Source: Gammaproteobacteria bacterium (lineage in GTDB: Bacteria > Pseudomonadota > Gammaproteobacteria > Steroidobacterales > Foliamicaceae). From it: 64,000 bases of DNA. Positions within the stretch are counted from its first letter, which is position 1; each line of letters starts with the position of its first letter. The position numbers and the translations under genes were made by a program. The notes under the pieces are model-generated. The model was given only the letters and a program-made list of their open reading frames with translations. It was not told the DNA's origin and did no database searches. The stretch spans positions 19,585 to 83,584 of the forward strand of contig JAPYNE010000009.1 in the NCBI GenBank assembly GCA_028285945.1. The letters run 5' to 3'. Shown in pieces: positions 7,053-26,513 of this stretch.

Positions 7053-7122
7053 GGCCGCGTGAGTATAGCGGCCCCGTCGCGGCGGCAACCCGTCCGCGTC
7101 ATATAGCGGTATATTTCCGGGT

Positions 7123-8271: not shown

Positions 8272-8498
8272 GTGAACAGTCCGAAGGCCGCCACGGTTGC
8301 GGCCAGCCCCATTGCGACAGCGTAGATGCGATGGGTCAGGCGCGTTTCGAGAGCCGCTAGGTCCAACTTCGTTGCATAGTCCTGGCGCCGCTGTATCGCA
8401 TTGGCGATGGCTTCCGCTTGGGCGCGCTCCACGCCCGCCGACTCAAGGGCGCGCGCCGCTCGGAAAGTATCGAAAGCGCCGCAAGCCATGCCGCGCAT
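8268..8498 (-). CDS. DUF1640-like small coiled-coil/membrane protein (paralogue of 22811-23074)
   Basis: MRGMACGAFDTFRAARALESAGVERAQAEAIANAIQ... plus C-terminal TM AVAMGLAATVAAFGLF. Start chosen at the ATG conserved with the paralogue. Confidence 0.65.
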   Translation of the reverse strand: MRGMACGAFDTFRAARALESAGVERAQAEAIANAIQRRQDYATKLDLAALETRLTHRIYAVAMGLAATVAAFGLFT

Positions 8499-8669
8499 TG
8501 TAACGTCCGACGAAGCGCAGCCGCCTCCGAAACCAAACGCGAATGCGCCCATTTCCGCAGTGGAGGCGATGGCCGACAACCGCGCCGCCTTTCGTGCGCG
8601 GCGCGTGGCTATACTGGAACGCGCCGCCCGCCTTTAAGGAGGATGCCGGGAAGCGGCACGGCATTGAAC

Positions 8670-9881: not shown

Positions 9882-9882
9882 C

Positions 9883-9910
9883 CCCGCTGCGCACAGAAAT
9901 GGCCGCAGCG
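9883..9910 (+). terminator. GC-rich hairpin just after the ATPase stop (possible terminator, no T-tract)
   Basis: CCGCTGCG (9883-9890) pairs with CGCAGCGG (9903-9910), a perfect 8-bp stem with a 12-nt loop. Confidence 0.3.
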
Positions 9911-10020
9911 GCCACTGCCGGGTCCTGCGGGCCAATTCGCCGCAAACGCGGAGAGTTACCTTGTTCCCGCCATCTGATGTTCGCGCATAGTATGCTTTTG
10001 ACCCGAACCGGGAGACACTC

Positions 10021-10245
10021 ATGACCAAATCAAACCGCAAGAGCCCCGCAGCGGCCCAAAGCGACGACGACAGGAGCGCTCTGCTCGCGGAATTACTTGA
10101 GTCCGGGCGAAACATGTCGGTTGCCGACTTCAAAGCTCAGCAGATGTCTTACGTAATCGGCTGCGTGGCCGGAGACGATAAGAACGCTCAGGAGAAGGTG
10201 CGGCAATATCTTGAGAAAACTCACGACATGCAAGCCGGCACGTGA
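10021..10245 (+). CDS. small hypothetical protein, translationally coupled to the Fic gene (possible Fic partner/antitoxin)
   Basis: 74-aa ORF at the start of the AT-richer island. Its TGA (10243-10245) overlaps the GTG start (10242) of the Fic gene. Confidence 0.5.
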   Translation: MTKSNRKSPAAAQSDDDRSALLAELLESGRNMSVADFKAQQMSYVIGCVAGDDKNAQEKVRQYLEKTHDMQAGT

Positions 10246-10829
10246 TTCTCCATGAGTTTGTTGGGCGGGATGAGGAGCATCCGCTCTACCAGAAGCTGCA
10301 CTCCTCAAACTATCTGCGCCAGCTTGGATTCCTCCAGTCCATGGTGCTTGCAGCCTTGGAATCCGAGAGGCCGTTTCTTTCACAAACCGTCATTAAGGCG
10401 CTAAATTATCATGCCATTGCTTGTTTGCATCCGTACGCTGGGGAGTATCGCCCTTGCCAAGTGCATGTGGGGTCATACCAGGCACCAGAAGAATATAGGG
10501 TTATGGCGCTTATGGATGACTTCGTCAACAACGTCAATCGGCACTGGATAAACGAAGACCCAATTAGGCTTTCGGCTTACGTTCTATGGCGGCTGAATTG
10601 GATACATCCCTTCATTAACGGCAATGGGAGAACCGCTCGGGCAGCGTGTTATTTTGTGTTGTGCGTCAAAACCGGAGGTTGGCTGGGCGGCAAAGTCATT
10701 TTGCCGGAACTGCTGCGCCGCGAAAGACCACGGTACGTCGAAGCGCTTAAGCAAGCCGATGCTTCAGGAGATGTCAGTGAGATCAGCAATCTCATATATG
10801 AGCTGCTGGGCAGGCAGCGGCAATTCTGA
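10242..10829 (+). CDS. Fic/DOC family protein (putative AMPylase-type toxin)
   Basis: Canonical Fic motif HPFINGNGRTAR (HPFxxGNGRxxR). Confidence 0.85.
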   Translation: MILHEFVGRDEEHPLYQKLHSSNYLRQLGFLQSMVLAALESERPFLSQTVIKALNYHAIACLHPYAGEYRPCQVHVGSYQAPEEYRVMALMDDFVNNVNRHWINEDPIRLSAYVLWRLNWIHPFINGNGRTARAACYFVLCVKTGGWLGGKVILPELLRRERPRYVEALKQADASGDVSEISNLIYELLGRQRQF

Positions 10830-11000
10830 ACCCTTGCGTATAGGCTTACAATTCCGCCAAGACTGGCTCTCCATGTGGTTCGCAGCACCTAGCCGGCGCG
10901 AAGGAAATCATCCTTGTTGTGTGCGTTGGCGACGCTTCTTCGTCCGTTTTGCTGCTATGCGGCGACCGGTTGGCGCATAGAAAGCTTGTTCAGAGCTTCC

Positions 11001-11044
11001 AAAACCCATGAGCAATTTCAACGCTAGTTAATTTTGCTCATGGG
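11001..11044 (-). terminator. rho-independent terminator of sspA (also closes the convergent Fic transcript)
   Basis: Perfect 11-bp stem CCCATGAGCAA (11005-11015) / TTGCTCATGGG (11034-11044). On the minus strand it is followed by TTTTGG. The stem overlaps the sspA stop codon. Confidence 0.6.
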
Positions 11045-12228
11045 CATTGTCCGATAGATGCTAGAGAGGACAGCGCCTGCAGGACCAGATTTGCAGCTTG
11101 TTCTACATCTTTTTCCAATGTGAAGCGGCCAAAACTGAATCGGATTGATGCCTCGCTCTCTTCATTTGATAGTCCTAGAGCACTCAGAACATGTGAGGGC
11201 TCGGGAGTTCCAGAAGTGCAGGCGGCTCCAGTGGATGCGGCTAGGCGAGGCTGCAACACGCCAAGAATGTCCCGTGCGTTGTGTCCGACGAAACAAGCGT
11301 TGGCATTTCCAGGGTGGCGATATTCATTGGATGGCCCGTTAAGAATCATTTCAGCGCCACCTTTCTGCAAGTGTTTTACAAAAGAATCTCTTAGCCTCGC
11401 TATCTCCCGTCGTTCGATGCTTGCCTGCTCGTTTGCGCAGAGGGAAGCGGCGGCGCCCATTCCGACGCAAAGCGGCAAGGGCAGAGTGCCTGACCGAATG
11501 CCTTCCTGCTGACCGCCGCCGTGAATGAGCGGTTCGATCCTGTCATGCAGATCGCGCCTGACATACAGGGCGCCAATGCCTTGCGGCCCATATATCTTGT
11601 GTCCGGAAAGACTTATTAGATCGGCGTGATAGGCGAGATCGTGCAGATCCATCGCGCACGGCGCTTGTGCGGCATCGGTGTGCAAGAGGATTCCAGAGGG
11701 AGCAAGCAGCGCCGCAATTGCCGGCATGTCTTGGATTACGCCCACTTCGTTATTGACCGCCATGATTGAAACCAGCAGCATGTCGTCGTCGAGCATCTCC
11801 TTGAGGGCGCATAAGTCAATTCGGCCCTCTGAATCGACCGGAACATGCTCCACAGTGAACTTCTCGCGATCCTCCAATGCTCTCGCAGCGGCCAACACGC
11901 ACTTATGTTCTATAGCACTGACCAAAATGCGCCGCCGTTTGTTGGAGGTATGCCGCGCCAGACCAAAAAGCGCCAGGTTATTGGCTTCCGTGGCACCGGA
12001 CGTAAAGATAATTTCGTCGGTATCCGCGCCAATTAAGGCCGCTACCAAAGAAGTGGCGTTTTGCGTCGCTTTTTCAGCTTTCCAGCCGACTATGTGATCC
12101 GTAGAGTGCGGATTGCCGAATGCCTCGCGCCAATGCGGCTCCATGGCTGCCAAGACACGCGGGTCAACCGGCGTGGTGGCCTGATAGTCGGCGTAGATGC
12201 ACTTTTCCATTCGCATTGGCAGCCGCAT
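11038..12228 (-). CDS. sspA: cysteine desulfurase (IscS/NifS/DndA-like), SspA of the Ssp cluster
   Basis: IYADYQATTPVD N-terminus, PLP-lysine motif SGHKIYGPQGIGALYV, active-site loop STGAACTSG. Divergent from sspB. The true start may be the internal ATG at 12210 (MEKCIYADY). Confidence 0.8.
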   Translation of the reverse strand: MRLPMRMEKCIYADYQATTPVDPRVLAAMEPHWREAFGNPHSTDHIVGWKAEKATQNATSLVAALIGADTDEIIFTSGATEANNLALFGLARHTSNKRRRILVSAIEHKCVLAAARALEDREKFTVEHVPVDSEGRIDLCALKEMLDDDMLLVSIMAVNNEVGVIQDMPAIAALLAPSGILLHTDAAQAPCAMDLHDLAYHADLISLSGHKIYGPQGIGALYVRRDLHDRIEPLIHGGGQQEGIRSGTLPLPLCVGMGAAASLCANEQASIERREIARLRDSFVKHLQKGGAEMILNGPSNEYRHPGNANACFVGHNARDILGVLQPRLAASTGAACTSGTPEPSHVLSALGLSNEESEASIRFSFGRFTLEKDVEQAANLVLQALSSLASIGQCP

Positions 12229-12309
12229 CTGGAAGGTTCATCCAGTAACGGACTTACCTTAACCTAACATGGTAGTATTGTCATCTACTCGTACTACACG
12301 GAAGCGCCG

Positions 12310-13245
12310 ATGCGGAGAGGGCCGCTCTACCGAGAAAGTTATCGTCCGCGCCTTTCAGGACACGAGACTTTTCCTCTACGCTACGGATGGCTTAAGAAGG
12401 CGTTCGACGCTGTCGAAGATTCCCCTCACGAAACAAGCGCCAAATCCGTTTTCTTGGCAGACGATGCCATTGCCCGCTTCGGCGTGGGCAAGAACATGGT
12501 GGCGTCCATTCGCCATTGGGCCAATGCAACGGGCGTACTTGATGAAGACGGATGCTTGAACGGGCGCGCAACAACGCCGATCGGGAATCTGCTTTTCGGC
12601 AGGAACGGGATCGACCCCTATTTTGAGCATCCGGCCACCGCATGGCTTATTCATTGGCAGCTTGCCGGCCGCTCGCGAAAAACAACATGGCATTGGGCCT
12701 TCAATTACTACCCGTCCATCTTTTTTGACCGGGAGCAACTCGCTTCAGGCTTGCTGAGCCTTGCGCGGGATCGCGGATGGTCGCGGGCGGCGCCCGCCAC
12801 GGTAAAAGCAGATGTGGCGTGTTTCATTAGAACCTATGTTTCCATGCCGCCATCCGGCAAGGCGAGCCATGAGGATGTCCTTGAGTCCCCGCTTACAGAA
12901 CTGGGCTTGGTGAAACCTGTGGGCAAGCGGGACGGGTTCCGATTTGTGCGCGGGAACAAACCCTCCTTGGGCCATGGTGTGTTTTGCTGCGCCATTACGG
13001 ACTTTTGGTCGCAGTTTTCCGCTGCGCGAACCCTCTCACTGGAGGCAATCGCTCACGAACCCGGTTCGCCTGGCCGGGTGTTTTTGCTTGACGAGAACAG
13101 TTTGGCGGAGCGCCTAGTGCATCTTGAGGAATCGAGCAATGGCCTTTACCGATGGTCGGAGACTGCCGGCCTCAAGCAGCTTGAGCGAACAGGCAAACTG
13201 AGCGCGAGCGATGCCTTGGAATTTGTCTTAAGGGACTACCCCTGA
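12310..13245 (+). CDS. sspB: DUF4007-family protein, SspB-like
   Basis: N-terminal LSGHETFPLRYGWLKKAFD is the DUF4007 hallmark. The gene sits immediately upstream of the large ATPase and the PAPS-reductase-like gene. Confidence 0.75.
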   Translation: MRRGPLYRESYRPRLSGHETFPLRYGWLKKAFDAVEDSPHETSAKSVFLADDAIARFGVGKNMVASIRHWANATGVLDEDGCLNGRATTPIGNLLFGRNGIDPYFEHPATAWLIHWQLAGRSRKTTWHWAFNYYPSIFFDREQLASGLLSLARDRGWSRAAPATVKADVACFIRTYVSMPPSGKASHEDVLESPLTELGLVKPVGKRDGFRFVRGNKPSLGHGVFCCAITDFWSQFSAARTLSLEAIAHEPGSPGRVFLLDENSLAERLVHLEESSNGLYRWSETAGLKQLERTGKLSASDALEFVLRDYP

Positions 13246-13270
13246 TGCGAAATAAGGAGATTCGAGACTA

Positions 13271-16200
13271 ATGGGGCTGGAGAATCACGTTCGGATCCTT
13301 CGGCGCTACCAACGCGCTATTCGCATCAACACGGATTTGCATGATCCCGCCGCGCTTGAAGGGTATGTTTGCCCTCGATCATCCGCCGCCGCCTTGGAAA
13401 CGATGGCTCGGCACCTGCAAGAGGCCGGGCAGGCGGCCTTCACCTGGACCGGGCCCTATGGCAGCGGCAAATCCAGCCTTGTGATTGCTCTTGCCGCCGC
13501 CCTAAGCGGCGACGAAGAGCGGCGTAAGAGAGCGGCGTCAATTTTAGGAAAGGACACAACCGCTCGGCTTTGGGAGGCTTTGCCGTCTCGAAAACGGGGT
13601 TGGCGAATGTTGCCCGTCGTTGGTCGGCGCGGTGATTCGGCGCAAGTGATTGGAGAAGCGCTCCAGGCTGCCAGACTCGTCCGAAAGAATGCGCCTAATG
13701 AATGGGATGAGAATCGGCTCTTGGCCACGTTGGAGGAGATTGCGTCTAAGTATCCGCGTGTGGGAGGCGGATTGGTGGTCTTCGTTGACGAGATGGGGAA
13801 GCTCCTTGAGGCGGCGGCGGAAGACGGATCGGATATCTATCTCTTCCAGCAACTCGCGGAAACCGCCTCCCGAAGTGGCGGGCGCCTTGTTGTTATTGGA
13901 ATACTCCATCAAGCATTTGAGGAGTATGCGCATCGCCTTTCACGGGAGGCGCGCGATGAATGGTCAAAGATTCAGGGCCGATTCGTTGACTTGGTCATCA
14001 ATGCTGCCGGCGACGAGCAAATTGATCTTCTTGCACGGGCCATAAAGTGCGATCGGCGACCTAGCCGGCAAAGTGCTCTGGCTAAGCTTGTTGTTCGGCA
14101 GGTGCAGAGAGATGTTGCTCCGGAGCTAGCCAACACTCTGAGCGATTGCTGGCCGTTACACCCTGTTGTTGCCTGCCTTCTAGGCCCCGTTTCCCGGCGA
14201 CGCTTCGGACAAAACCAGCGCAGCATATTCAGCTTCTTGAACTCCGCGGAGCCTCAAGGATTCCAGGATTTCCTGCGGTCGGCGAAAAAGACTGATCTTT
14301 ACCGAGTCGATCAGTTATGGAATTACCTGCGGTTTAATCTTGAGCCCGCCATCCTGGCATCGCCCGACGGACATCGCTGGGCCTTGGCAATCAACGTGCT
14401 GGATCGTTGCGAGCCGGCAGGTGGCGAGGAGCTGCACGTTCGGCTGCTCAAAGCGATTGCGGCGATTGATATGCTCAAAGACAGGTCGGGGCTGATCGCT
14501 AGTACGGAATTACTAAAGCTCGCGCTTGATGATTGCGATCCAGAGCAAATTGATGCTGCTTTGGATGACCTGCAGAGATGGTGTCTGGTCATATTCCGCA
14601 AGTTCACGAACGCCTATTCGGTGTTCGAGGGCAGTGACTTTGATATCAATGAAGCCATAGAGCAGGCTTTGGATGAAACTCGCGAACTCGACCTTTTCTC
14701 GTTCGACGCGCTTCCGAATCTACAGCCTATAGTCGCCAAGCGGCATTACCATGAGACGGGCGCGCTTCGCTGGTTCGACGTGGAGCTAGTGCCCTCGGCT
14801 GAAATATCAAATGTGGTCGAGCAATACGAGCCAAAGCACGGTGCCATAGGAGCGTTCCTGCTGGCCGTGCCTACGCAAGGCGAATTGGAATCAGAGGTAA
14901 GAGAAACATGCCGCCTTGCCTCGGAAAGGGCGCGTGAATGGGATATTGTCGTTGGGCTTTCTCAAAGCGCATGGAGGATTCCGGCGTTAGCGCATGAGAT
15001 CATCGCGCTGGAGCGTGTACGGAGCACATCACCGGAATTGCAAGGCGATCGGGTTGCGCGAATAGAGGTGCGGGCGCGAATTGCCGACATGCAGAGCAGG
15101 CTTGAATCCGAGGTTTCCGCTGCTTTTGACGGAGCGCGCTGGTATTGCCGGGGATCCGAGCCGAAAAGTTTGTTGCATGCGGAACTGAACAGTTTGGCTT
15201 CGAGTCTTGCCGAAGCGCGATTTTTCCAGGCGCCCAAGCTGCGAAACGAGCTGGTTGTTCGAGTCAAACCCTCTAGCAATGCAATAGCGGCGCGCAACGC
15301 TTTGCTCCGGCGCATGGCGCTCAATGAACGGGAGCAGCGCCTAGGCATAAGCGGCTTCCCTGCGGAAGCGGGTCTCTACGCCTCTCTTTTGGAAGCCACT
15401 AGGCTGCATCAGAATACTGGTGAAGGTTGGCGTTTTATCTCTCCCGCCGACATCCCGTGCGATCCATGCCGATTGGCGCCCGCTTGGGAAGCGGCAATCC
15501 AATTCTTAAAGAAGAAGTCGCATCGCACCGTCTTGTGGTCGGAGATATACGGCATCTGGAGCGCGCCTCCATTCGGCATCAAGAATGGGCTGCTGCCGAT
15601 TCTTTCCGTTGCGTTTCTGATGTCCCAGAGCGGTTCACTGGCCTTTTATCGCGATTGCATATTCCAAGCACGGCTGTCTGATCTGGATATCGACTACCTA
15701 GTCAGAGATCCGGACGATATCCAAGTGCGCTGGATGGACCTTTCGGCAAACTCGCGTCGCCTCTTGTCTTCAATGGCCGACATTGTTCGAGACTTGGATT
15801 CCGAGAACACCTTGATCAACCTGCAGCCAATAGACGTGGCCAAGGGCTTGGTTGCAATTTACGATCGTTTGCCGCTTTGGGTTGGGCGCACGCAGCGGCT
15901 ATCCGGCACCGCAAAGCGCCTTAGACAACTTTTCAAGCAAGCGAATGATCCCAACAAGCTGGTCTTCGACGATATTCCGAATGTGCTCGGAACGGACAGT
16001 TCGGACGAGGACAAGTCAGCAACGGAAAAGATCGCAAAACAGGTTTGCGATGGTCTGATTGAGCTGCAGCAAGCCTATCCGGCAATGTTGCATCGACTGC
16101 GCGATATTCTGCTTGCTGAACTCCAGGCCCCGAACACCTCGGCGGCGACGCTGGCTGAGTTAAGGGAAAGAGCCAAGAATATACGCGAGCTCGGCGGCGA

Positions 16201-16663
16201 TCATCGACTAGAAGCCTTCATTGTGCGGATTGCACAATTCCAAGGCACTGATGTGGACGTTGAGGGCTTGGCTGGCTTGGCAGTGAACAAGCCTCCTCAA
16301 ACTTGGGTCGATACGGATATTGACCGCGCAGAGGTGGGCCTCGCGGAATTGGCGCAGAATTTTTTGCGTGTCGAAGCGTTCGCTCGCGTGAAAAGCAGGC
16401 GCGACAAGAGACACTCAATGGCTGTTATTGTGGGCATAGACGGTCGTCCAGCCCCCGTGCATGAAGAATTTCAAATCGCGGATCAAGACCACAGGGAAGT
16501 GAACGCGCTAATTGAGCGGGTTGATCGATCCTTGCGCGCAAGCGGGGTGGAGCGACGAAACATTATTCTTGCGGCCCTTGCTGAATTAAGTGCGCGTTAC
16601 CTGGATCCTCGCGCGGAGCAGGAAAGAAAAGCCAGTCCTCAAAGCAAAAAGGTTGCTAGCTAG
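13271..16663 (+). CDS. sspC: large P-loop ATPase, SspC-like
   Basis: 1130 aa, with Walker A GPYGSGKSS and Walker B-like LVVFVDEMGKLLE. Position between sspB and sspD. Confidence 0.7.
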   Translation: MGLENHVRILRRYQRAIRINTDLHDPAALEGYVCPRSSAAALETMARHLQEAGQAAFTWTGPYGSGKSSLVIALAAALSGDEERRKRAASILGKDTTARLWEALPSRKRGWRMLPVVGRRGDSAQVIGEALQAARLVRKNAPNEWDENRLLATLEEIASKYPRVGGGLVVFVDEMGKLLEAAAEDGSDIYLFQQLAETASRSGGRLVVIGILHQAFEEYAHRLSREARDEWSKIQGRFVDLVINAAGDEQIDLLARAIKCDRRPSRQSALAKLVVRQVQRDVAPELANTLSDCWPLHPVVACLLGPVSRRRFGQNQRSIFSFLNSAEPQGFQDFLRSAKKTDLYRVDQLWNYLRFNLEPAILASPDGHRWALAINVLDRCEPAGGEELHVRLLKAIAAIDMLKDRSGLIASTELLKLALDDCDPEQIDAALDDLQRWCLVIFRKFTNAYSVFEGSDFDINEAIEQALDETRELDLFSFDALPNLQPIVAKRHYHETGALRWFDVELVPSAEISNVVEQYEPKHGAIGAFLLAVPTQGELESEVRETCRLASERAREWDIVVGLSQSAWRIPALAHEIIALERVRSTSPELQGDRVARIEVRARIADMQSRLESEVSAAFDGARWYCRGSEPKSLLHAELNSLASSLAEARFFQAPKLRNELVVRVKPSSNAIAARNALLRRMALNEREQRLGISGFPAEAGLYASLLEATRLHQNTGEGWRFISPADIPCDPCRLAPAWEAAIQFLKKKSHRTVLWSEIYGIWSAPPFGIKNGLLPILSVAFLMSQSGSLAFYRDCIFQARLSDLDIDYLVRDPDDIQVRWMDLSANSRRLLSSMADIVRDLDSENTLINLQPIDVAKGLVAIYDRLPLWVGRTQRLSGTAKRLRQLFKQANDPNKLVFDDIPNVLGTDSSDEDKSATEKIAKQVCDGLIELQQAYPAMLHRLRDILLAELQAPNTSAATLAELRERAKNIRELGGDHRLEAFIVRIAQFQGTDVDVEGLAGLAVNKPPQTWVDTDIDRAEVGLAELAQNFLRVEAFARVKSRRDKRHSMAVIVGIDGRPAPVHEEFQIADQDHREVNALIERVDRSLRASGVERRNIILAALAELSARYLDPRAEQERKASPQSKKVAS

Positions 16664-16665
16664 AA

Positions 16666-17502
16666 ATGGTAAAGGCCGAACGACATGTCTTGGGATTGTC
16701 GGGCGGGCGCGACAGTGCTGCGCTTGCCGTGTACATGAGGGAAAACCACCCCGAACTCGATATTGAGTATTTCTTTACCGACACCGGCAAAGAACTCCCC
16801 GAGGTCTATGAGTATCTTGTGAAACTCGAAGGGTTTCTGGGCAAACCCATCCTAAGGCTGAATCCAGATCGGGACTTTGACTTCTGGCTCAAGCAGTACA
16901 ACGACTTTCTCCCCTCGCCCCAGACACGCTGGTGTACTCGACAGCTCAAGTTGAGGCCATTCGAGCAATGGGTGCGCCCCATGCTCGACGAAGGAGCACG
17001 CGTTTACAGCTACGTCGCCATCCGTGCCGACGAGCAATACCGGCAAGGCTATTCTTCAAAGCAGGACGATTTGCAGGTTCGCCTGCCGCTAAAGGAAGCG
17101 GGGATCGACAAGGCAGGCGTGCTGGAAATTCTCGAAGGCACGGGTCTTGGCCTGCCTTCCTATTATGAATGGCGCACCCGCAGCGGCTGCACCTTCTGCT
17201 TCTTCCAGCAGAAGATCGAATGGGTGAGGCTGCGCGAGCGCCACCCTGAGTGTTTTCAGGAAGCGAAGGATTATGAAAAAAACGCCTTGGAACACGGATC
17301 GCCATTTACTTGGAGCCAAGGCGAGTCGCTTCATGAATTGGAGCAGCCGGAACGCTTGGAAGAGATACGAAAGGATCACGAGTTGCGGCTTGTCCGCAGT
17401 AAAGCTAGGTCTCAACCTAATCCATTAAGACCCAATTCCGAGCCTTTAGATATTGATGATGTATACGGCAAAGCTAAAGTTTGTCTTGCCTGCCACAAGT
17501 AA
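16666..17502 (+). CDS. sspD: PAPS-reductase/PP-loop ATP pyrophosphatase, SspD (DndC-like)
   Basis: PP-loop LGLSGGRDSAALAV; Cys motifs RSGCTFCFF and C-terminal CLACHK. Starts 2 nt after the sspC stop. Confidence 0.8.
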   Translation: MVKAERHVLGLSGGRDSAALAVYMRENHPELDIEYFFTDTGKELPEVYEYLVKLEGFLGKPILRLNPDRDFDFWLKQYNDFLPSPQTRWCTRQLKLRPFEQWVRPMLDEGARVYSYVAIRADEQYRQGYSSKQDDLQVRLPLKEAGIDKAGVLEILEGTGLGLPSYYEWRTRSGCTFCFFQQKIEWVRLRERHPECFQEAKDYEKNALEHGSPFTWSQGESLHELEQPERLEEIRKDHELRLVRSKARSQPNPLRPNSEPLDIDDVYGKAKVCLACHK

Positions 17503-17576
17503 GCGACTAATACCTATGCAGATGCCGGAGACTAGATTCTACTCAATGGAAACAATAGCCATGCGAGTCAAATGCT

Positions 17577-19865
17577 ATGCGTAAAGTGAAAGATCTTTTT
17601 GAGGCCAAAGCCGACAACCTTTGGGACACCCTAACTAGCCATGGTGGCTCGGCGGGTTTTCGAGTTCCGGAGTATCAGCGCACTTATGACTGGGGCCAAG
17701 AGAAGATCGCTCGGCTACTTGAGGATTGTGCCAATGGTTTGTACCAACTTCGTCGCAAAGGCAAGGAAGAATCGTATACCTTTCTTGGCACACTAATCCT
17801 TGTGAACGAGAGAAGTGAAAACACATTTGACGGAAAAACACTTGACATCGTAGATGGCCAACAGCGCCTAACCACACTTCTTCTAATTTGTTGTGCTCTA
17901 ATCGAGAAAATCAACGCGAATCTTCGGTCAGCTGAGTGTCTACCACCAGCTACCAGGACATTGATACTAGACGAAGCAGATATGCACATCAGCGAACTAT
18001 TTGAGTGCGTTGTTGGCGAGTTACCAGGACTTAGGCAAAGGGCGCGATATCCAAGAATAGTACGCCACGGGGATAAGAGAGCCAAGGAGAGAACAAATTC
18101 GCATTACACTTCCACAATTGCCAGATTTCTAAGGGATTTTTCTGACCATTACAGCGGTTCTCCCAGGGAGGAGTTTAAGTTTCCAGAGATCAGCGATAAC
18201 GATGGAGCAAGCGAGAGGCTCCGGAAAAACTACAGCTTCATCAAGGATCAAATCGCCTATATTGCTGACTTGCCGGAACAAAACAAAGGGATTGATTGCG
18301 AGATAGTCCCATATGGAGATTTTCAGCGTAAAGGGTATACGAATCTTCTGCCAAAAATAAATCGCCAAAGCCACATGGATAGAAATAATGCACAGAGTGA
18401 AATAGATAACATTTGCTCGGAAATAAGTAAGCTCGGAGATTCCAATAGCCTAGTACGCTTGGTGTTGTTCGCATCGTATATTAGTCGTTGCGTCGTATTG
18501 ACTCGCGTTGAGACAGAAGACCAAGATTCTGCATTTGATATTTTTGATGCACTGAACACAACAGGGGAACCGCTCACTGCAATTGAAACCCTTAAGCCTA
18601 GGGTCATTCAGACAGAAAGGAATAGTTATAAGGGATCAGAGTCCGAGATCGCATTTGGTGAAATTGAGAGACGGTTTGAGAAGATCGAGAATCCGTATGA
18701 GCGACAAAAGGAAGCTAAGGAGATTGTGGTTTCTTTCGCACTCTATAAGGACGGGGAAAAGGTAGCGAACGATTTAAGAGAACAAAGGCGATACTTGGGG
18801 AATACCTATGACAAATGTGAGTCCATTGAAGCAAAACGGAGATTTGTTACAGGGCTTGCGGAAATGACGCAATTCCGAAGTGAGTGTTGGAGGAAGGATG
18901 GCATCAAAGACGCTGCCTATCTGGAGCCAGACTCGAGACTTTGCTTACAAACAATTAAGGACATGAACACAAGCTTGGCGCTGCCCCCAATTGCACGCTA
19001 TTGGGCAAAGCGGCACGAGCCAAATGGTGAACAGAGATTTGCCCAAATAGTGAATGCAGTGACTGCATTTCTGGTCCTGAGACGTTCGGCAACAGGCACT
19101 ACCGGGGGTATCGACGCAGTTCTGCGCACCTTGATGAAACAGCAGAGCGGTGAGGGTGACCCATTGTGTGTTGGATTGGGGGCAGAGAATAAATTGCTGA
19201 ATGTAACTCAATTCAAAGCGCACTTGCGCTCCCTTCTGGCAAAGCGGCCTATCGAAGTGACAAATAAAGAGTCATGGGTTAAGGCGGTAAGAGAAGTACC
19301 GATTGCTAATCACGCAAAAGCGTTGGCAAAATTTCTTATCCTTGCTGCGTCGCAATATGCCAAGCCTGATCCACAACAACCCGGGCTCTTGACTCGGGCT
19401 GGATTTCGCAAGAGCGATGAGCAGGAGTACTTGACCTACGAGAAATGGACATCGGCGGAGTACAAGACAATTGAGCATGTCGCGCCCATTACTGATCCGG
19501 GTGAAGGGTGGGACGAAGGGATATACAGCAGACCATACATTAGGCACACTTTAGGAAATCTGGTGCTTTTGCCGCAGAGGGAGAATGCCAGTCTTGGTAA
19601 TAGCGTATGGCGCCGGAAACATTTGTTCTACTTAGCCCTCACTGAATCCGACGATAGTGAACAAGAGAAGTGGTTGCGCAAAGCCGAAGAAGAAGGACTA
19701 GAGTTTCCCAAGAGAACAAGAGACCTCATAAAGAGAGGACGCAGACTTCATTTGCTAGACCCCATTCGAGATGTTCGGGAGTGGAATGAAATGCTAGTTC
19801 GTGGCAGGACAGAAAACATCTTGGGTTTGGCATGGGATACCTTGGCAGAGTGGCTGTGGAAGTGA
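17577..19865 (+). CDS. sspE: DUF262 + DUF1524 (GmrSD-family) nuclease, SspE-like PT-sensing restriction component
   Basis: N-terminal FRVPEYQRTYDW and IVDGQQRLTTLLL (DUF262). C-terminal TIEHVAPI ... GNLVLLPQRENASLGN (DUF1524 His-Me finger). Confidence 0.8.
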   Translation: MRKVKDLFEAKADNLWDTLTSHGGSAGFRVPEYQRTYDWGQEKIARLLEDCANGLYQLRRKGKEESYTFLGTLILVNERSENTFDGKTLDIVDGQQRLTTLLLICCALIEKINANLRSAECLPPATRTLILDEADMHISELFECVVGELPGLRQRARYPRIVRHGDKRAKERTNSHYTSTIARFLRDFSDHYSGSPREEFKFPEISDNDGASERLRKNYSFIKDQIAYIADLPEQNKGIDCEIVPYGDFQRKGYTNLLPKINRQSHMDRNNAQSEIDNICSEISKLGDSNSLVRLVLFASYISRCVVLTRVETEDQDSAFDIFDALNTTGEPLTAIETLKPRVIQTERNSYKGSESEIAFGEIERRFEKIENPYERQKEAKEIVVSFALYKDGEKVANDLREQRRYLGNTYDKCESIEAKRRFVTGLAEMTQFRSECWRKDGIKDAAYLEPDSRLCLQTIKDMNTSLALPPIARYWAKRHEPNGEQRFAQIVNAVTAFLVLRRSATGTTGGIDAVLRTLMKQQSGEGDPLCVGLGAENKLLNVTQFKAHLRSLLAKRPIEVTNKESWVKAVREVPIANHAKALAKFLILAASQYAKPDPQQPGLLTRAGFRKSDEQEYLTYEKWTSAEYKTIEHVAPITDPGEGWDEGIYSRPYIRHTLGNLVLLPQRENASLGNSVWRRKHLFYLALTESDDSEQEKWLRKAEEEGLEFPKRTRDLIKRGRRLHLLDPIRDVREWNEMLVRGRTENILGLAWDTLAEWLWK

Positions 19866-19961
19866 GAGCAAGGGAACCCAAGCGGCAGATGAGCAATCGT
19901 GTTCATGGTGCCTGAAAGAAATCTGTTCATGAAATAACGGCGCTCCCCACCCGAACCAGCC

Positions 19962-21692
19962 ATGCTCACGAAGATCACTATTCGCAACTTCAAGCGCTTC
20001 GGCGAGGTTGAGGTTGAACTGGGCAGCCCGGTGGTGTTCATCGGGCCGAATAATTCGGGCAAGACCTCCGCGATGCAGGCGCTGGCTTTGTGGGACATTG
20101 GCCTGAAGCGCTGGAACGAGAAGCGTTCGGGCAAGAGCGCGCCGGAGCGGCGGCCGGGAGTGACCGTTAACCGGAGGGATTTGCTGGCTATTCCTGTTCC
20201 CAGCGCGTCGCTTTTATGGCGGGCGCTTCGGGTGCGGAATGTGCGGCGAGCGAACGGGCGGCCGCACACCGAGAATGTGCGCCTCGACCTGGTCGTTGAG
20301 GGTGTGACTGCCGATAAGGCCTAGTCTTGCGGCCTGGAATTCGACTACGCCAACGAGGAATCCTTCTACTGCCGTCCGCTGCGGTTGTCCCAAGGAAAGA
20401 CGCCGGACCGCATGCCCATTCCGGAAGCGGCGAGGGCGGCCCAAATCGTTTTCCTGCCACCCATGTCCGGTCTGGCGGCCACCGAAACGCGGCTCGATCA
20501 GGGGGCGGTGAACGTGCGGATCGGCGAAGGGCGCACGGCGGAAGTGCTGCGGAATCTCTGCCTGCGGATTAACGACGAAACCCCCGAGCTGTGGCAACGG
20601 CTGGCGGCGCAAATCAGAGAACTTTTCGTCGTTGAGCTTGACGAGCCGCGCTATATCTCCGAGCGGGGCGAAATCGTGATGGCCTATCGCGAAGAGGGGA
20701 CGAAGCTGGACCTGTCCTCAAGCGGCCGGGGATTGCAGCAAACCCTTCTCATGCTGGCCTACATGTGCGCCAACCCCGGCGCGATCATCCTGCTCGACGA
20801 GCCGGACGCGCACCTCGAAATTCTCCGCCAGCGCCAGATCTACAAGCTCATCACCGATGTCGCGCTGGAAAACGGCAATCAAATCATTGCGGCAAGCCAT
20901 TCCGAGGTGCTTCTGAACGAAGCGGCCAGCCGCGACATGGTCATAGCTTTCGTGGGCCAGCCGCATCGCTTGCAGGATCGGCCCAGCCAAGTCCATAAGG
21001 CGCTCAGCGAGATCGGATTCGACCAGTACTATCAAGCCGCGCAGGCAGGCTGGGTGCTGTATCTGGAAGGCGCATCGGATTTGGCGATATTGCAGTCTTT
21101 CGCCGAGCGCCTGGGCAATGAGGCGGCGTTGCAGGCGTTGCAGCGCCCATTTGTGCGCTATGTGGGCAACCAGCCGAGGGCGGCGGCGCAGCACTTCTAC
21201 GGTTTGCGGGAGGTGCTTCCGGAGCTTTCCGGCGTGGCGCTGTTTGATCGTCTCGACAGTGAGCCGGAGCCGGACGGCGCCTTGCAATGCATGATGTGGA
21301 AACGACGGGAAATCGAGAACTATTTGTGCTCGCGGGCAACGCTCGAAGCCTATGCCATCGCCTCGGCGCGAGTGGATGAGCCGGCGCCGCTGTTCTCGGA
21401 CATGGAAAAAGACAGGCGCCTGTCGGCTATGCGGGAAGCGGTCGCCGAGGTTGAGGAAGCCATGAGCACACTCGGCAAAGGTTCGCCTTGGGATTCGCAA
21501 GTGAAGGCAAGCGATGACTTTCTCATCCCGCTCTTCAAAACCTACTTCGCAAAACTCGAATTGCCGAACCTCATGGACAAGAAGCAGTTCTATGAGCTTG
21601 CGGCGCACGTGCCGGAGGAGAAGCTCGCCCCGGAAATCAACGAAAAATTGGACAAGATCGCAGACGTGTCCGCCTCAGCACCGTCCATGTAG
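19962..21692 (+). pseudogene. ABC-type ATPase fused to a DUF4435/Toprim-like C-terminal domain, interrupted by one in-frame TAG (20322-20324)
   Basis: ORFs 19962-20324 and 20385-21692 are in the same frame. Walker A GPNNSGKT lies upstream of the stop. Downstream are signature-like SSSGRGLQQTLLML, Walker B IILLDEPDAHL, H-loop IAASHSE, then YLEGASDLAIL ... LFDRLD ... WKRREIENYL. Confidence 0.75.
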
Positions 21693-21752
21693 TGAACCTG
21701 CCGCTATCACTTTCGAATTGACCGAAACTTGTCGCTCAACTGGAGTCACCGA

Positions 21753-22010
21753 TCAGTACACTCGTTCGGCATGCTGCTCAAACCACTGTAAACGGCGATC
21801 GGTTTCTATGCTCGGGTCGGCATCGATTAATCGATCAATGATCTCCGGCAGTTCGTGGAAGCTTGCGCGACTCTTCGGGCCGCAAACTGACCGTTCCCCG
21901 CGATCCGAGCCACTCCGGATGTGGAAAATTCAGACCCTTAATGGGGTGGTGCGTAGCACTTGATCCAAATGCTATATGTGTGCTCGAAGAGCATTGCGGG
22001 AAACTTTTGG
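21753..22010 (-). pseudogene. unidentified gene remnant (frame-broken)
   Basis: The minus strand gives ...FHELPEIIDRLIDADPSIETDRRLQWFEQHAERVY* ending at 21753. Upstream pieces (MLFEHTYSIWIKCYAPPH*, GSEFSTSGVARIAGNGQFAARRVAQAS) are in other frames or stopped. Confidence 0.25.
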
Positions 22011-22050
22011 GTGGCTGGCCATCTTCCCTCTGCCTTACTCCTTGGTCGCG

Positions 22051-22524
22051 TTAACGAAGGTTCATTAGCCACCTAATGCCATGTTGTGCAAGAACGAAAA
22101 GGCCGCCGCCGCCCAGCGCAGCGAAGAACCACACCGCGAGCTGTTGAGCGCGAGCGGCCTGATGTTCCGAGCCAAAAAACATCATGTAGAGAATTGCAAA
22201 TAGCAGCAAGGCGACAACTGCACCCATCCCGAAAGCCAATTTTGATCCGAGGGAAATGCGGGCCATTGCCAATCTCTCGTCGGCCTTGAGGCGTTCCATG
22301 TGGTAGTTGTATTGCCGCGTGTCGGAAGCATCACCCAGCTCAACCGCCCGCAACGCTACTTCGGTGCGGCGGTCTTGACTCTTGATGCGCTCGCGCTCAA
22401 TTTGAAGAACCTGATCAAACAGGACCAATTGCCGAGGATCGGGGCTTTCGTCTGCAGATCCTTCTGAGGGCAGAAGGTCGCCCCCGCCGTGCGTCTTACC
22501 GCTATCGGATACTACTTCGCCCAT
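22051..22524 (-). CDS. hypothetical two-TM membrane protein
   Basis: 157-aa ORF in AT-richer DNA. It has an acidic or coiled N-terminal half, then LAFGMGAVVALLLFAILYMMFF and LAVWFFAALGGGGLFVLAQ. Confidence 0.5.
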   Translation of the reverse strand: MGEVVSDSGKTHGGGDLLPSEGSADESPDPRQLVLFDQVLQIERERIKSQDRRTEVALRAVELGDASDTRQYNYHMERLKADERLAMARISLGSKLAFGMGAVVALLLFAILYMMFFGSEHQAARAQQLAVWFFAALGGGGLFVLAQHGIRWLMNLR

Positions 22525-22810
22525 TCGGACGCTTGTGGCCTAAAACCAGGGAGACGCGAAATGGGAGATGGGCCATCCGCGATACTCGAGAATCGAAATA
22601 AGCGGTCGCAATTGGAATCATTTTTTGCAAGTTCTCCCCCCACCCTAGGTGCGGAAGTAAACTCTACCACGGTATGAATTTTCCGGGTTCATGCGAGTGT
22701 CTTGTCCTGTGGAGATTTACCACGAAAGGGGTGACTGATCAGGTTGCCAGTCAGTTCGGGGCCCCATCGCGATCAAGCGCACCGGTTCGACATCGCCGTT
22801 CGGAGCTAGG

Positions 22811-23074
22811 CTACGCGAAAAGGCCAAATGCCGCAACCGTCGCGGCCAGTCCGGCGGCGACAGCGTAGAAGCGGTTGGTCAGGCGCGTTTCGAGCGCGCC
22901 CATTTCTGCCCGCAGTTCGCTGCCCAGCTTTGCGACATCTGATTTCGTTGCGTAGTCTTGGTGCTGCTGTATCGCTTCGGCAATAGCTTCCGCCTGAGCG
23001 CGCTCCACGCCTGCGGATTCGATCGCCCGCGCAGCTTGGAAGGTATCGAAAGCGGCGGCAGCCATATCGCGCAT
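22811..23074 (-). CDS. DUF1640-like small coiled-coil/membrane protein (paralogue of 8268-8498)
   Basis: MRDMAAAAFDTFQAARAIESAGVERAQAEAIAEAIQ... AVAAGLAATVAAFGLFA. Nucleotide similarity to 8268-8505 includes the CGTTACA just 5' of the ATG. Confidence 0.65.
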   Translation of the reverse strand: MRDMAAAAFDTFQAARAIESAGVERAQAEAIAEAIQQHQDYATKSDVAKLGSELRAEMGALETRLTNRFYAVAAGLAATVAAFGLFA

Positions 23075-23183
23075 TGTAACGCTGGGAGGCGTGGTGGCCA
23101 GCTCGAAATGAGGCGCGTATATGCGTATTTCCGCATAGTCTTCGCCAGCCTCGCGCAGCAATGCCGGTAACTTTGGCAGAAAT

Positions 23184-23541
23184 AGGCGCGTTGATCCATT
23201 CGCCGCTCGGCTTCATCTCGAAAGCAAAGTTTTTGCTGTGGTCGTCACGATTGCCGCCAACCACATTGAACACCATGCGCCGGAAAAGCTGGGTCTTCTC
23301 GGCGTGCGACCGTGTTAGCCAATCGCTGAGCTTGAGCAGCTCGAGGGAGTCGAAGTCCGGCATGTGGAAGTTGGAATGCACCAGTCCGGCAACGCTGTGG
23401 ATATGTCGGCGGCGGTTGCCGGAGTAGCGGTCGAAGCGGCGGGTGATGAAGTAGGCGTTGCCCGCGGCCGTAGCCCAGCCGGCCAAGGAGCGCCGGCGCG
23501 CCGCCGCCCAGCCCGTGGAAATAGACCCGCAGCTCTTTCAT
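23184..23541 (-). pseudogene. hipA: hipA kinase-toxin remnant (large internal deletion/frameshift and 3' truncation)
   Basis: N-terminal MKELRVYFHG... (frame of 23245-23541) jumps to the C-terminal-domain frame: YFITRRFDRY...RRMVFNVVGGNRDDHSKNFAFEM...GEWINAP. Similarity then stops. Confidence 0.7.
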
Positions 23542-23828
23542 GCGCTGCCGTGCGTGGCTAGCAGTTCATCCATGGTGGCGGGGCCAGGCTGGGGAAACAG
23601 CCCTTCAGCATGCTTCAGATCGCCATAAGAGGCGCACAACATCAGGAATTGGCGCAGCGAAATTTCGCCGCTGGTCTCAAACCGGCGAATGGTGGGGGCC
23701 GGCACCCCGCTTACCCTCGCTGCCTCTTGCCGACTGTGCTTGCGGGCGCGCCGCCGCTGCCGCAGTGCCGCCGCCAAATGATCCTGCACTTCCCGAGGCG
23801 TTCCAAAAAGGAATATCGGAGTATTCAT
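23538..23828 (-). CDS. hipB: XRE-family HTH antitoxin, HipB-like
   Basis: HTH segment SRQEAARVSGVPAPTIRRFETSGEISLRQFLML. ATGA overlap with the hipA remnant start. Confidence 0.75.
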   Translation of the reverse strand: MNTPIFLFGTPREVQDHLAAALRQRRRARKHSRQEAARVSGVPAPTIRRFETSGEISLRQFLMLCASYGDLKHAEGLFPQPGPATMDELLATHGSA

Positions 23829-23830
23829 AT

Positions 23831-23880
23831 TTTCTAAAAAAGTTTATTTTGAGATATTCTTGTATCAATTTTTTTAGAAA
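23831..23880. promoter_or_regulatory. AT-rich promoter/operator region with a perfect 11-bp inverted repeat upstream of hipB
   Basis: TTTCTAAAAAA (23831-23841) and TTTTTTAGAAA (23870-23880) are exact reverse complements separated by 28 bp, immediately 5' of the hipB ATG (23828). Confidence 0.5.
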
Positions 23881-24074
23881 TTATGCGCAAGCGCGGGATC
23901 AACAAGGCTAAGCGCATGGCGCAAATCCGAGATCGCATGCCGAAGCTGCTAGAATGGAACCATTCTCTCCGCTAGTTGGCGGTCTGTTCCGCAACGGGGA
24001 ACCCGGCCCGCAGGCGCGCTGCTTGCAATCCGCAAGGCGGTTCGCTTGCAACGCGAAGCGGACTGTCCCGGCAA

Positions 24075-26513
24075 ATGCAAACGAGCCCTCGGATACCGCT
24101 TAAATCCTGCCCGCAAGCCCTGTTTGCGTTGCTTGCCGGCATGGCTCTTCTGAAGGCCGCGCTGCTTGCGCCCGCCGCTTTCGCCGAGGTTCGCGCAGCC
24201 GGCGGTGCGGTGGCGCGAATCGCTTTTCTGATCGACCGCGAGGACCCGCTGGCGGCGCAAATCCGCGCTTTGGCGCGCGAGGAGTTGCTGGCGCTGGCGC
24301 GCGACGAATTCGACGTGCGCCTGCCGGAGGAGCGGGTGGTGACCGCGGATGGCACGGCGGCCGGCATCGCCAAGGCCTTGGAGCGGCTGATCGCGGACGA
24401 GCAAACCGCAATCATCGTGACCCAAGGGCTTATTTCCTCCGAGCTGGCGGCGCGCGCCGCGCCTTGGCCGAAGCCTGTCATCGCGTCAACGGTGCTCGAC
24501 GCGCGCCTTCAGGGGCTTCCCGAAAGCTCGGGCGCCAGCGGCGTGGCCAACCTCACCTACATCGCCTATCCCTCGCCGGGGCCGGTCCTCCGCGACCTGC
24601 GTAAATTCCAAGAGCTCGCGGACTTCTCCAATGTGGCCATCCTAGTGGACGAGGAGGATGCCGTGGCTTTCGCGGGACTTCTTGAGCGGCTGCGCGCAAC
24701 CTCGGCGGACATGGGCATCATGCTGCGTCCGGCGTCCGTGGGCGCAACCGCAGCCAGCGCCCTCGACCGCCTTCCGCCGGATGTCGAGGCCGTGTATCTG
24801 GCGCCGCTCAATGGCTTGGATCCGGGCGAGTTCGAGCGCCTCGCCGAAGGACTCGCCGAGCGCCGCCTGCCGTCCTTCTCCTATTCCGCCGCCGACGTGG
24901 GCCGGGGCATTATGGCCTCGCTGGAGGCGGTTGACGTTGCGCTCGTGGCCCGGCGGATTGCCCTCAACGCCTACCGTATCCTCTTAGGCGACGATCCCGC
25001 CTCGCTCCCGGTCACCATCGTGCCGACCGGGAACCTTGTGTTGAACATGCGCACTATGCGGCGGCTGGGCGTTCTGCCGCCCCTGCAAACGCTGCTCGAG
25101 GCCACGCGGCTGTTCGAGGAGCCCGAAGGCGTGGAGCGCAGCGTGACCATCGAGAGCGCCATGCGCGAGGCGCTTGCCGCCAACCTGGCGCTCGCCGCCG
25201 AGGAGCAGGCGGTCCGGGCCGGCGCCGAGGAGGTCCGCTTGGCGCGCGCGCGCCGTCTGCCGATGGTGGAAGCCGGATTGACGGGCTCGGCCATTTCCAG
25301 GCGGGAGGCGGAATCGTCCTTCGGATTGCGCCCGCAGCGCAACGTGGACGGCGGCTTCACCTTAAGCCAGCTCATCTTCTCGCACGAGGCGAACGCGAAC
25401 GTGTCGATACAGCGGTCGCTGCAGGCATCGAGGGAATGGGACCAGGCGGCTCTTGAGCTCGACGTGGCGCTAGAGGCCGCCGAAGCGTATCTGGACGTTC
25501 TGCGCGGCAAGTCGCTGGAGCAGGTGCAGCAAGACAATCTCGACCTCACGCTCGCATCGCTCCGCTTGGCGCAGGAGCGCGAGCGGATCGGCGCGGCCGG
25601 GCCGGGCGAGCGTTTGCGGCTCAACAGCGAGCTGGCCCGGAGGCGGGCGGAGCGCATCAATGCCTACGCGGCGCGCGCCGCCGCCGAGATGTCGCTGAAC
25701 CAAATCCTCGACCGTCCGATCAGCGAGCCCTTCGCGACGCCCGAAGCCGGACCGGAGGGGCGGGGCCTGCTGGAGGGCAGCCTGGCCATCCGCTACCTGG
25801 CCGATTTGAGCAGGGTCGGCATCCTGGATGACTTCCTGGTCCATGAGGCGGCGGGCATCGCGCCCGAAATCCGCAGCCTCGATGCCGCAATCGCGGCCCA
25901 AAAGCGGCGTTTGGCCTCCACGCGCCAAGCGTTCTATCTTCCGAAGGTGGCGCTTGAAGGCAATGTGGCCGACAACCTGCTGCGCGAAAGCGCGGGAGGC
26001 TCGGGAAGCGCAGCGCCGTCGGGCCTGCCTGCGCCCGCCTCGACGGACGAATCCTGGCAGCTTGGCTTGTCCGTCACCCTGCCGATTTTCCAAGGGAATT
26101 CCCGCAACGCAAGCCGCCGGCAGGCCGCGGCCACTTTGAGCCGGCTGCGCCGCCAGCGCGAACTGGCGGCGCAGCGCATCGAGCAGAACGTGCGGGTTCA
26201 GCTTCTGTTCGCCCGCGCCCGCCTGGCCGTGGTGAGCGAAACCGAAACCGCCGCGGAGAGCGCCCGGCAGTCGCTGGAGCTGGTTACGCAGTCCTACGGG
26301 CAGGGGCTCCTGAGCGTTGTCGATCTGCTGGAAGCGCAAACCAGCGCGTTGGTGAGCGAAATAGGGGTTGCCAACGCCGTATATGACTATTTGGCGAGCT
26401 TGAAGCGCGTCGAGCGCGCCGTCGGACAGTTCGAGGCGCTCGCCACGCCCGAGGAAAGCGCCGATTTCCTGCGGCGGCTGGCCGAATACGAGCGCGTCCG
26501 GAAGCGCGGCTGA
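24075..26513 (+). CDS. TolC-family outer-membrane efflux protein with an extra ~390-aa N-terminal periplasmic-binding-protein-like domain
   Basis: Start at ATG 24075 (MQTSPRIPLKSCPQALFALLAGMALLKAALLAPAAFAE, signal peptide). The C-terminal half has the two TolC/OEP repeats (SAMREALAANLALAAEEQAVRAGAEEVRLARARRLP...). 812 aa in total. Confidence 0.7.
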   Translation: MQTSPRIPLKSCPQALFALLAGMALLKAALLAPAAFAEVRAAGGAVARIAFLIDREDPLAAQIRALAREELLALARDEFDVRLPEERVVTADGTAAGIAKALERLIADEQTAIIVTQGLISSELAARAAPWPKPVIASTVLDARLQGLPESSGASGVANLTYIAYPSPGPVLRDLRKFQELADFSNVAILVDEEDAVAFAGLLERLRATSADMGIMLRPASVGATAASALDRLPPDVEAVYLAPLNGLDPGEFERLAEGLAERRLPSFSYSAADVGRGIMASLEAVDVALVARRIALNAYRILLGDDPASLPVTIVPTGNLVLNMRTMRRLGVLPPLQTLLEATRLFEEPEGVERSVTIESAMREALAANLALAAEEQAVRAGAEEVRLARARRLPMVEAGLTGSAISRREAESSFGLRPQRNVDGGFTLSQLIFSHEANANVSIQRSLQASREWDQAALELDVALEAAEAYLDVLRGKSLEQVQQDNLDLTLASLRLAQERERIGAAGPGERLRLNSELARRRAERINAYAARAAAEMSLNQILDRPISEPFATPEAGPEGRGLLEGSLAIRYLADLSRVGILDDFLVHEAAGIAPEIRSLDAAIAAQKRRLASTRQAFYLPKVALEGNVADNLLRESAGGSGSAAPSGLPAPASTDESWQLGLSVTLPIFQGNSRNASRRQAAATLSRLRRQRELAAQRIEQNVRVQLLFARARLAVVSETETAAESARQSLELVTQSYGQGLLSVVDLLEAQTSALVSEIGVANAVYDYLASLKRVERAVGQFEALATPEESADFLRRLAEYERVRKRG

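Follow-up and report, generated by a model that had tools for sequence, protein, structure and literature searches.

The 64,000-nucleotide stretch of DNA analyzed here (hereafter the window; GenBank assembly GCA_028285945.1, contig JAPYNE010000009.1, positions 19,585 to 83,584) belongs to an uncultured gammaproteobacterium and carries, next to sspE, a gene at 19962-21692 (+) that is split by a premature amber codon. Translated in frame 1, the gene comprises 576 codons and a natural stop (TAG at 21690-21692), 577 codons in all, and is interrupted internally just once, by TAG at 20322-20324 (...EGVTADKA*SCGLEFDYANEE...). The N-terminal fragment, an open reading frame (ORF) of 120 amino acids (aa) at 19962-20324 (+), ends at this premature stop, and a second ORF of 435 aa is found at 20385-21692; the two starts are 423 nt (141 codons) apart, and both ORFs therefore lie in one frame. 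The TAG at 20322-20324 is the sole interruption, with no frameshift and no further stop, and the product would be 576 aa if read through. A single in-frame TAG splitting one gene had been proposed from the letters of the DNA and a list of its ORFs (the sequence-only reading), and is confirmed both by this translation and by the full-length, single-chain homologues described below.

The disrupted gene encodes the elements of an ABC-type ATPase followed by a Toprim-like domain. Walker A (GPNNSGKT, aa 28-35, nt 20043-20066) is located upstream of the premature stop, as had been read from the sequence at the outset. All the remaining motifs fall within the downstream remainder (20325-21692 (+)), which continues in the same frame to the natural stop: the ABC signature (SSSGRGLQQ, aa 252-260, nt 20715-20741), Walker B (IILLDEPDAHL, aa 275-285, nt 20784-20816), the H-loop (ASHSE, aa 311-315, nt 20892-20906), and the C-terminal motifs YLEGASD (aa 367-373, nt 21060-21080), LFDRLD (aa 427-432, nt 21240-21257), and REIENYL (aa 449-455, nt 21306-21326).

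The read-through protein matched thousands of relatives when used as a query. The best 120 homologues are all single proteins of 577-587 aa, with query coverage of 98-100% and identity of 70-93% (best match P0001: 1183 bits, 93% identity); single chains of 577-580 aa are matched by the read-through protein over 99-100% of its length. In a MAFFT alignment of these 120 homologues, from which the residue at the stop was read, the column is Trp in 120/120, and W121 is also nearly invariant in 85 diverse homologues (32-88% identity to P0001). Trp121 heads a strongly conserved block (W-x-C-G-L-E-F-D-Y-A-N-E-E-S-F-Y-C-R-P), and its site is in a beta-strand (119-129) of the predicted structure (model with predicted local distance difference test score, pLDDT, of 93.4). 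At the DNA level, codon 121 with its preceding codon reads GCG TGG in L001, in both L002 copies, and in L008, and GCA/GCT TGG in L084-L089; in the window it reads GCC TAG. Since the relatives have Trp, encoded by TGG, at this position, one G>A transition (TGG>TAG) accounts for the lesion, and the earlier suggestion that the stop replaces a Trp TGG codon was right. Across 80 loci in GTDB species representatives (66-98% identity to P0001), 78 of the primary genomic copies are uninterrupted. A naturally split gene, with homologues encoded as two genes broken at this position, is ruled out by the single chains of all 120 best homologues and by these whole genomic copies.

The remainder of the gene still looks selected, and the mutation is therefore recent. 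The 120 homologues agree without exception at 178 columns; the window protein has two private deviations there (the stop and A418V), compared with 0-3 in intact homologues. The ratio of nonsynonymous to synonymous substitution rates (dN/dS), calculated by the Nei-Gojobori method against the closest genomic orthologues (L001 and L002), is 0.16 and 0.15 for the window overall, compared with 0.18 between L001 and L002, both of which are intact; the part before the stop gives 0.13-0.19 and the part after it 0.15-0.17. Lineage-specific codon changes (nonsynonymous:synonymous) number 28:56 in the window and 11:34 and 9:25 in the relatives, and the window ratio is far from the roughly 3:1 neutral expectation. 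These values indicate that the gene was under purifying selection until recently, and we roughly estimate the unconstrained share of the window lineage's branch at a few per cent at most.

The TAG allele is also present in a second assembly. An exact look-up of the 120-aa fragment identified contig Ga0131715_100050 (44.7 kb, recorded in two samples) of Joint Genome Institute (JGI) metagenome 3300009875, on which the same 120-aa product is called and the same TAG allele is found. This contig is 100% identical to window positions 9962-25017, except for 128 bp that are absent from the window at 22586, and it ends where the window continues; because of the 128-bp indel and the different contig end, it must have been assembled separately or represent another haplotype. 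The sequence of the relative L001 runs on into the 128-bp segment of this same-strain contig (L081:12626-12753), and the deletion of the segment in the window shortens a small minus-strand ORF from 79 aa in L081 to 42 aa (22502-22630 (-)), which points to heterogeneity at the strain level or to differing assembly. When SspE and the two fragments were looked up as exact proteins, only Ga0131715_100050 was retrieved, with no sister strain carrying a repaired allele. An exact-pattern scan of JGI metagenome contigs for the TGG or TAG allele gave no match, the collection scanned evidently being without these contigs.

In Pfam, the read-through protein matches AAA_15 (1.7e-20) and AAA_21 (2.8e-18), and also SMC_N; the N-terminal ABC-type ATPase with Walker A, signature, Walker B, and H-loop is as expected for the OLD family. 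The strongest PADLOC matches named AriA appear generic, as their model lengths (373 and 304) equal those of Pfam AAA_15 and AAA_21. The PADLOC AriAB model PDLC02981 aligned with residues 273-455 (E 1.7e-15) at model positions 331-521 of 694, which falls short of a full-length profile match. A profile of the family matched the class 1 OLD nuclease of Thermus scotoductus (6P74) best among PDB entries (1.4e-17). Foldseek comparison of the full-length AlphaFold model retrieved 6P74, GajA, and PtuA at 1e-13 to 1e-12 (6P74: 1.7e-13, 641 aligned columns), the alignments to OLD and GajA spanning both domains.

For the C-terminal domain, the 241-252 aa of the window protein alone gave no Pfam match (E<=10) and no PADLOC match (E<=1), and the domain profile returned only noise against the PDB (nuclear receptors, E~0.2); the family assignment of this domain is consequently drawn from the relatives and from fold comparison. 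Among 38 C-terminal domains of the family, PADLOC matched AriAB in 14 (best 5.4e-7) and AriB in four, and Pfam matched OLD-like_TOPRIM in three (best 1.7e-4), DUF4435 in one (E=0.029), and DUF3226 in one. In the AlphaFold2 model of the domain (pLDDT 94.9), alternating beta-alpha units lead into a helical bundle; the best PDB matches of this model are AriB chains (8ux9_A, E 5.2e-3, probability 0.80; 8v46_D), followed by the Toprim regions of GajA and OLD. Residues E369, D373, D429, E450, E452, N453, and Y454 are invariant or nearly so in the 85 diverse homologues, consistent at distant-homology grade with a Toprim domain with conserved acidic residues. From sequence and modeled structure, the protein would be an OLD-family ABC-ATPase-Toprim fusion with a predicted nuclease domain closest to PARIS AriB/AriAB. 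The proposal of a single-chain, OLD/PARIS-like ATPase-Toprim protein of 576 aa is thereby borne out by Pfam, profile, fold, and full-length homologues; the further description of the domain as DUF4435-like holds at the level of the family (relatives and fold comparison) and fails for the window protein itself, which has no C-terminal Pfam or PADLOC match. The family is large, with 523 clusters (50% identity) at E<=1e-30.

Among characterized systems, PARIS in its merged AriAB form (OLD class 4; PMC11464382) is similar in being a single chain in which an AAA_15/AAA_21 ABC-ATPase precedes a Toprim nuclease domain, in providing the best structural matches to the C-terminal model, and in the spacing of acidic residues, the E26/D30...D88 of AriB resembling E369/D373...D429 of the window protein (PMC11464382). 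The Toprim acidic set of AriB comprises E26, D30, D88, E90, and E122 (PMC11464382), and the family residues E369-x3-D373, D429, and E450/E452-N-Y fit this set. Unlike PARIS, the window protein has no match to DUF4435 (PF14491; present, as noted, in a single relative), covers the AriAB profile only in part, and aligns to AriB with low TM-scores (about 0.2); furthermore, its family resides in chromosomes of uncultured metagenome-assembled genomes (MAGs), not in P4-like satellites. In PARIS, the Toprim nuclease is restrained by the ATPase; upon sensing of a phage protein, tRNA is cleaved and translation arrested (PMC11464382; PMC12409363).

Class 1 OLD proteins (P2 Old, T. scotoductus OLD 6P74, and Vibrio cholerae OLD; PMC7049728; PMC10568477; PMC12392090) provide the best PDB match by both profile and fold and are likewise encoded by a single gene that lacks a conserved partner, be it a helicase, a reverse transcriptase, or another protein. 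In contrast, sequence similarity to them hardly extends beyond the ATPase (residues 2-42 are all that the PADLOC Old model aligns), and the Toprim domain resembles that of AriB more than that of OLD, OLD-like_TOPRIM being touched in few of the relatives. The output of class 1 OLD is DNA nicking or exonuclease activity (PMC7049728; PMC12392090). Gabija GajA (OLD class 2) shares the ATPase and Toprim folds (Foldseek 2.7e-13 to 8u7i_A), and several PADLOC GajA models are weakly matched, but neither the window nor the related loci have an adjacent UvrD-like GajB helicase, and the window protein is shorter than GajA-type proteins. As a solitary gene, the window gene looks like class 1 (PMC10568477), and the similarity of its nuclease leans to merged AriAB (class 4).

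We infer that the ancestral gene would have encoded a solitary, ~577-aa OLD-family protein with an N-terminal ABC-type ATPase (by analogy a sensor or regulator) and a C-terminal Toprim metal-dependent nuclease, putatively a single-chain abortive-infection or defence effector. By analogy to PARIS and class 1 OLD, the ATPase of the intact protein may sense an infection cue and release the nuclease against tRNA or DNA, aborting the infection. In the window strain, one G>A transition would have converted the invariant Trp121 codon to TAG, with translation predicted to stop after 120 residues, cutting off Walker A from the signature, Walker B, H-loop, and nuclease. With Walker A separated from every other catalytic element, the protein is predicted to be non-functional. 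Re-initiation at TTG 20385 or ATG 20412 would lose residues 121 to 141 or 150, respectively, and would proceed from no well-placed ribosome-binding site; the expected phenotype is loss of function. The gene is very probably a young pseudogene that arose by a recent, genuine loss-of-function mutation, rather than a gene with a recoding signal, and of the three explanations offered in the sequence-only reading (nonsense mutation, sequencing error, and suppressed or programmed read-through) the evidence favors the recent nonsense mutation.

Two other members of the family contain interruptions or decayed copies. L049 (10001-11743 of OZ243984.1, a Binatia MAG), a family member in another phylum and the exception among the primary genomic copies, has an in-frame TAG at codon 510 (11528-11530; GKGSPW > GKGSP*), which also replaces a conserved Trp at a position other than that in the window. 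Both stops read CCTAG and are derivable, by deamination on the opposite strand, from CCTGG, an instance of the CCWGG (Dcm-type) 5-methylcytosine hotspot. The complement of TGG is also the CCA motif that is modified by Ssp. A Dcm-type hotspot as the origin of both stops is unproven; with two cases, considered post hoc, it carries little weight, and it is opposed by the GCG, GCA, or GCT, not GCC, that precedes TGG in the relatives of the window gene. The window shows neither a special depletion of CCWGG nor an enrichment of CTAG, and it has no C5-methyltransferase motif. In L002 (4068-11734 of OZ243929.1, a Gammaproteobacteria MAG), a SspE homologue (61% identical) is followed after 10 bp by a degraded second copy of the ATPase gene (6372-7722), with residues ~279-388 deleted and a frameshift, and the intact copy (10001-11734) lies 2.3 kb beyond the degraded one; this suggests that the ATPase gene was duplicated, or imported with an island, and that the redundant copy then decayed.

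The principal rival to a genuine mutation is that the TAG is a sequencing or assembly artefact, or a minority allele in the consensus, and that the true genome has TGG and an intact gene. Such an error would suit a lesion of only one base in a gene that otherwise looks functional, and evidence that consists of assemblies, not reads; but the same TAG is present in the separately assembled JGI contig, with its indel and different ends. Moreover, the long genes of the window are uninterrupted (SspC, 1130 aa; a resistance-nodulation-division pump, 1030 aa; SspE, 762 aa), so the assembly is not error-rich, and CTAG and CCTAG are not over-represented in the window, which argues against systematic miscalling of CCWGG as CCTAG. 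An artefact is therefore improbable, and sequencing error, as raised in the sequence-only reading, is an unlikely cause given that the second assembly has the same allele. The JGI gene caller predicts a 426-aa ORF from ATG 20412, and the ATPase and nuclease of PARIS can work as separate chains (PMC11464382), so that a functional split can be envisaged in which the 120-aa Walker A fragment and a C-terminal protein re-initiated at TTG 20385 or ATG 20412 reassemble, or in which the C-terminal piece acts alone. We regard this as very improbable, since the break falls within the ATPase core rather than between ATPase and Toprim, natural splits at this point are absent from the family, and re-initiation would remove the conserved block headed by Trp121; the only Shine-Dalgarno-like sequence (AGGA) is ~16 nt before ATG 20412, a poor spacing.

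Programmed or conditional read-through, in which a suppressor tRNA (from the host or carried by a phage) or a leaky context allows decoding of the amber codon to give full-length protein at a low level or upon a cue, would account for the perfect preservation downstream of the stop, and low or conditional expression of a toxic effector is a plausible design; the Trp>TAG of L049, at its other position, could be read in the same way. The preservation is equally explained by a recent lesion, though, and the stop is shared by none of the 120 homologues, with nearly all genomic copies uninterrupted. Of 38 long, non-overlapping ORFs in the window, 12 end in TAG, sspC and the gene itself among them, and reassignment of TAG is ruled out by this ordinary use as a terminator. 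There is no tRNA gene within the 64-kb window, and no known recoding or RNA element was matched by Rfam in 19000-24000 at E<=1. A suppressor inserting Gln or Tyr would, in addition, not restore the invariant Trp of a buried strand. Read-through of this kind consequently finds no support and has only a very slight probability. Slighter still is the chance that the amber codon is a conditional switch, such that the toxic nuclease would be made only in the presence of an amber-suppressor tRNA, for example from a TAG-recoded phage; its sole hint is the independent Trp>TAG of L049, both stops being TAG and not TGA. If true, it would make the apparent pseudogene a trap that senses stop-codon-recoding invaders.

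Several points weigh against a young pseudogene of a defence gene as the explanation. With assemblies as the basis, a consensus error or a mixed population has the low probability assigned above, and the window and JGI assemblies may stem from the same or overlapping read sets. The codon-change ratio of the window is only slightly above those of the relatives, which fits a short neutral period and does not prove it. The putative Toprim assignment draws on weak sequence matches and on a Foldseek match of probability 0.80 with low TM-scores, and the putative defence function of the family is suggested by analogy.

The gene directly upstream of the pseudogene (17577-19865) is a full-length SspE (PADLOC 6.7e-246), the last gene of an apparently intact SspA(-)/SspB/SspC/SspD/SspE phosphorothioation defence cluster at 11038-19865 (SspA 1.3e-131, SspB 5.5e-104, SspC E=0, SspD 3.6e-137). 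The 80 genomic loci have no conserved neighbor, no neighbor cluster being present in more than 18 of them, and the commonest neighbors are housekeeping genes (short-chain dehydrogenase/reductase, pyrroloquinoline quinone dehydrogenase, FtsZ, and PurH). SspE is directly upstream and collinear only in L002, L001 has only a partial SspE match (43% identical, opposite strand), 78 of the 80 loci are without any SspE match, and SspA-D are encoded within 10 kb at none of them. Adjacency to Ssp is confined to the window strain, L085-L087, and L002. In L085-L087 (P0003, intact, 86% identical), SspA(-)BCDE is directly upstream of the ATPase gene, and a PIN/Phd pair, an intact 435-aa HipA, and its helix-turn-helix (HTH) partner are downstream.

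Close relatives place these genes in a variable slot, which in the window extends from 8272 to 19961, between a radical-SAM/AAA_16 flank and the ATPase gene, and holds Fic and SspABCDE as cargo. L084 and L088 share the left flank of the window (radical-SAM gene and AAA_16 gene), and L084 and L088/L089 share the ATPase gene. The cargo is SspABCDE in L085-L087, a methyltransferase and HNH in L084, and a ScoMcrA-like SBD-HNH with a methyltransferase in L088/L089, joined in L088 by a PIN/Phd pair. The slot of variable defence genes thus has the conserved ATPase gene as its right-hand boundary, and the Ssp cluster is one insert among several alternatives. A role of the ATPase gene as an Ssp component is ruled out by the many loci lacking SspE and by the other cargo in close relatives. 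The position right after sspE, to which the sequence-only reading had drawn attention, is correct, and it carries no functional meaning, as the gene does not belong to the Ssp system; the adjacency is incidental. Incompatibility with Ssp is likewise ruled out, as L002 keeps an intact copy beside SspE, and the coexistence of SspABCDE and an intact copy in L085-L087 gives no sign of it. Upstream of the ssp cluster, the window encodes a STAND/AAA_16-AAA_22-type NTPase (8418-9881 (+), 487 aa) and a Fic-domain protein (10242-10829 (+), 195 aa; PADLOC SoFic 1.2e-16), and because these genes adjoin the ssp cluster we regard the region as a multi-system defence island.

A second toxin gene at the locus is also broken: ~1.5 kb from the amber-split gene lies a hipA remnant (23184-23541 (-)), in which a ~100-aa piece matches Pfam HipA_C (3.4e-19) only over model positions 62-155 of 213 and the N-terminus seems to start in a different frame. 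It adjoins an intact hipB-like HTH gene (23538-23828 (-), 96 aa), and L085 and L088 have intact HipA genes here (422-435 aa). The window strain is also without the PIN/Phd pair of its relatives. The gutted hipA, the absent PIN/Phd pair, and the 128-bp deletion fit a general erosion of toxin and defence genes at the locus. Selection against a toxic effector may be the reason for the loss, in which case the gene would have been toxic and then silenced.

The family of ~577-aa proteins spans 66-98% identity across MAGs of more than ten phyla, including those labeled Gamma- and Alphaproteobacteria, Chloroflexota/Dehalococcoidia, Vicinamibacterales, Bryobacterales, Latescibacterota, Nitrospira, Spirochaetia, Rhodothermales, Binatia, Thermodesulfobacteriota, and others. 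Many of the record names are of a form that we take to be typical of sponge or coral holobiont MAGs. With flanks of unrelated housekeeping genes, this points to a solitary gene that has recently spread widely, by horizontal transfer, through a single kind of community. A search of a phage collection gave no match to the family, and plasmid matches were at most 26% identical.

The locus represents a clean case of a gene of defence or toxin type that was very probably lost recently through a single nonsense mutation in an uncultured, symbiont-type gammaproteobacterium, although this finding in itself matters little. Annotators should join the two ORFs into one feature marked as a pseudogene and should avoid labeling it an Ssp component. 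The family behind the pseudogene is of more interest, as it comprises uncharacterized, solitary OLD/AriAB-like ATPase-Toprim proteins at the edge of a variable defence slot in this clade; the intact P0001 and P0003 are good candidates for single-chain, AriAB-like phage defence and for distinguishing cleavage of tRNA from that of DNA.

Downstream of the pseudogene, the window also encodes a 157-aa protein without a family match (22051-22524 (-)) and a 116-aa coiled-coil protein with a faint CCDC90-like/DUF1640 match (22811-23161 (-)); the coiled-coil gene adjoins the ATPase gene in the close relatives L001, L002, L084, and L085 as well.

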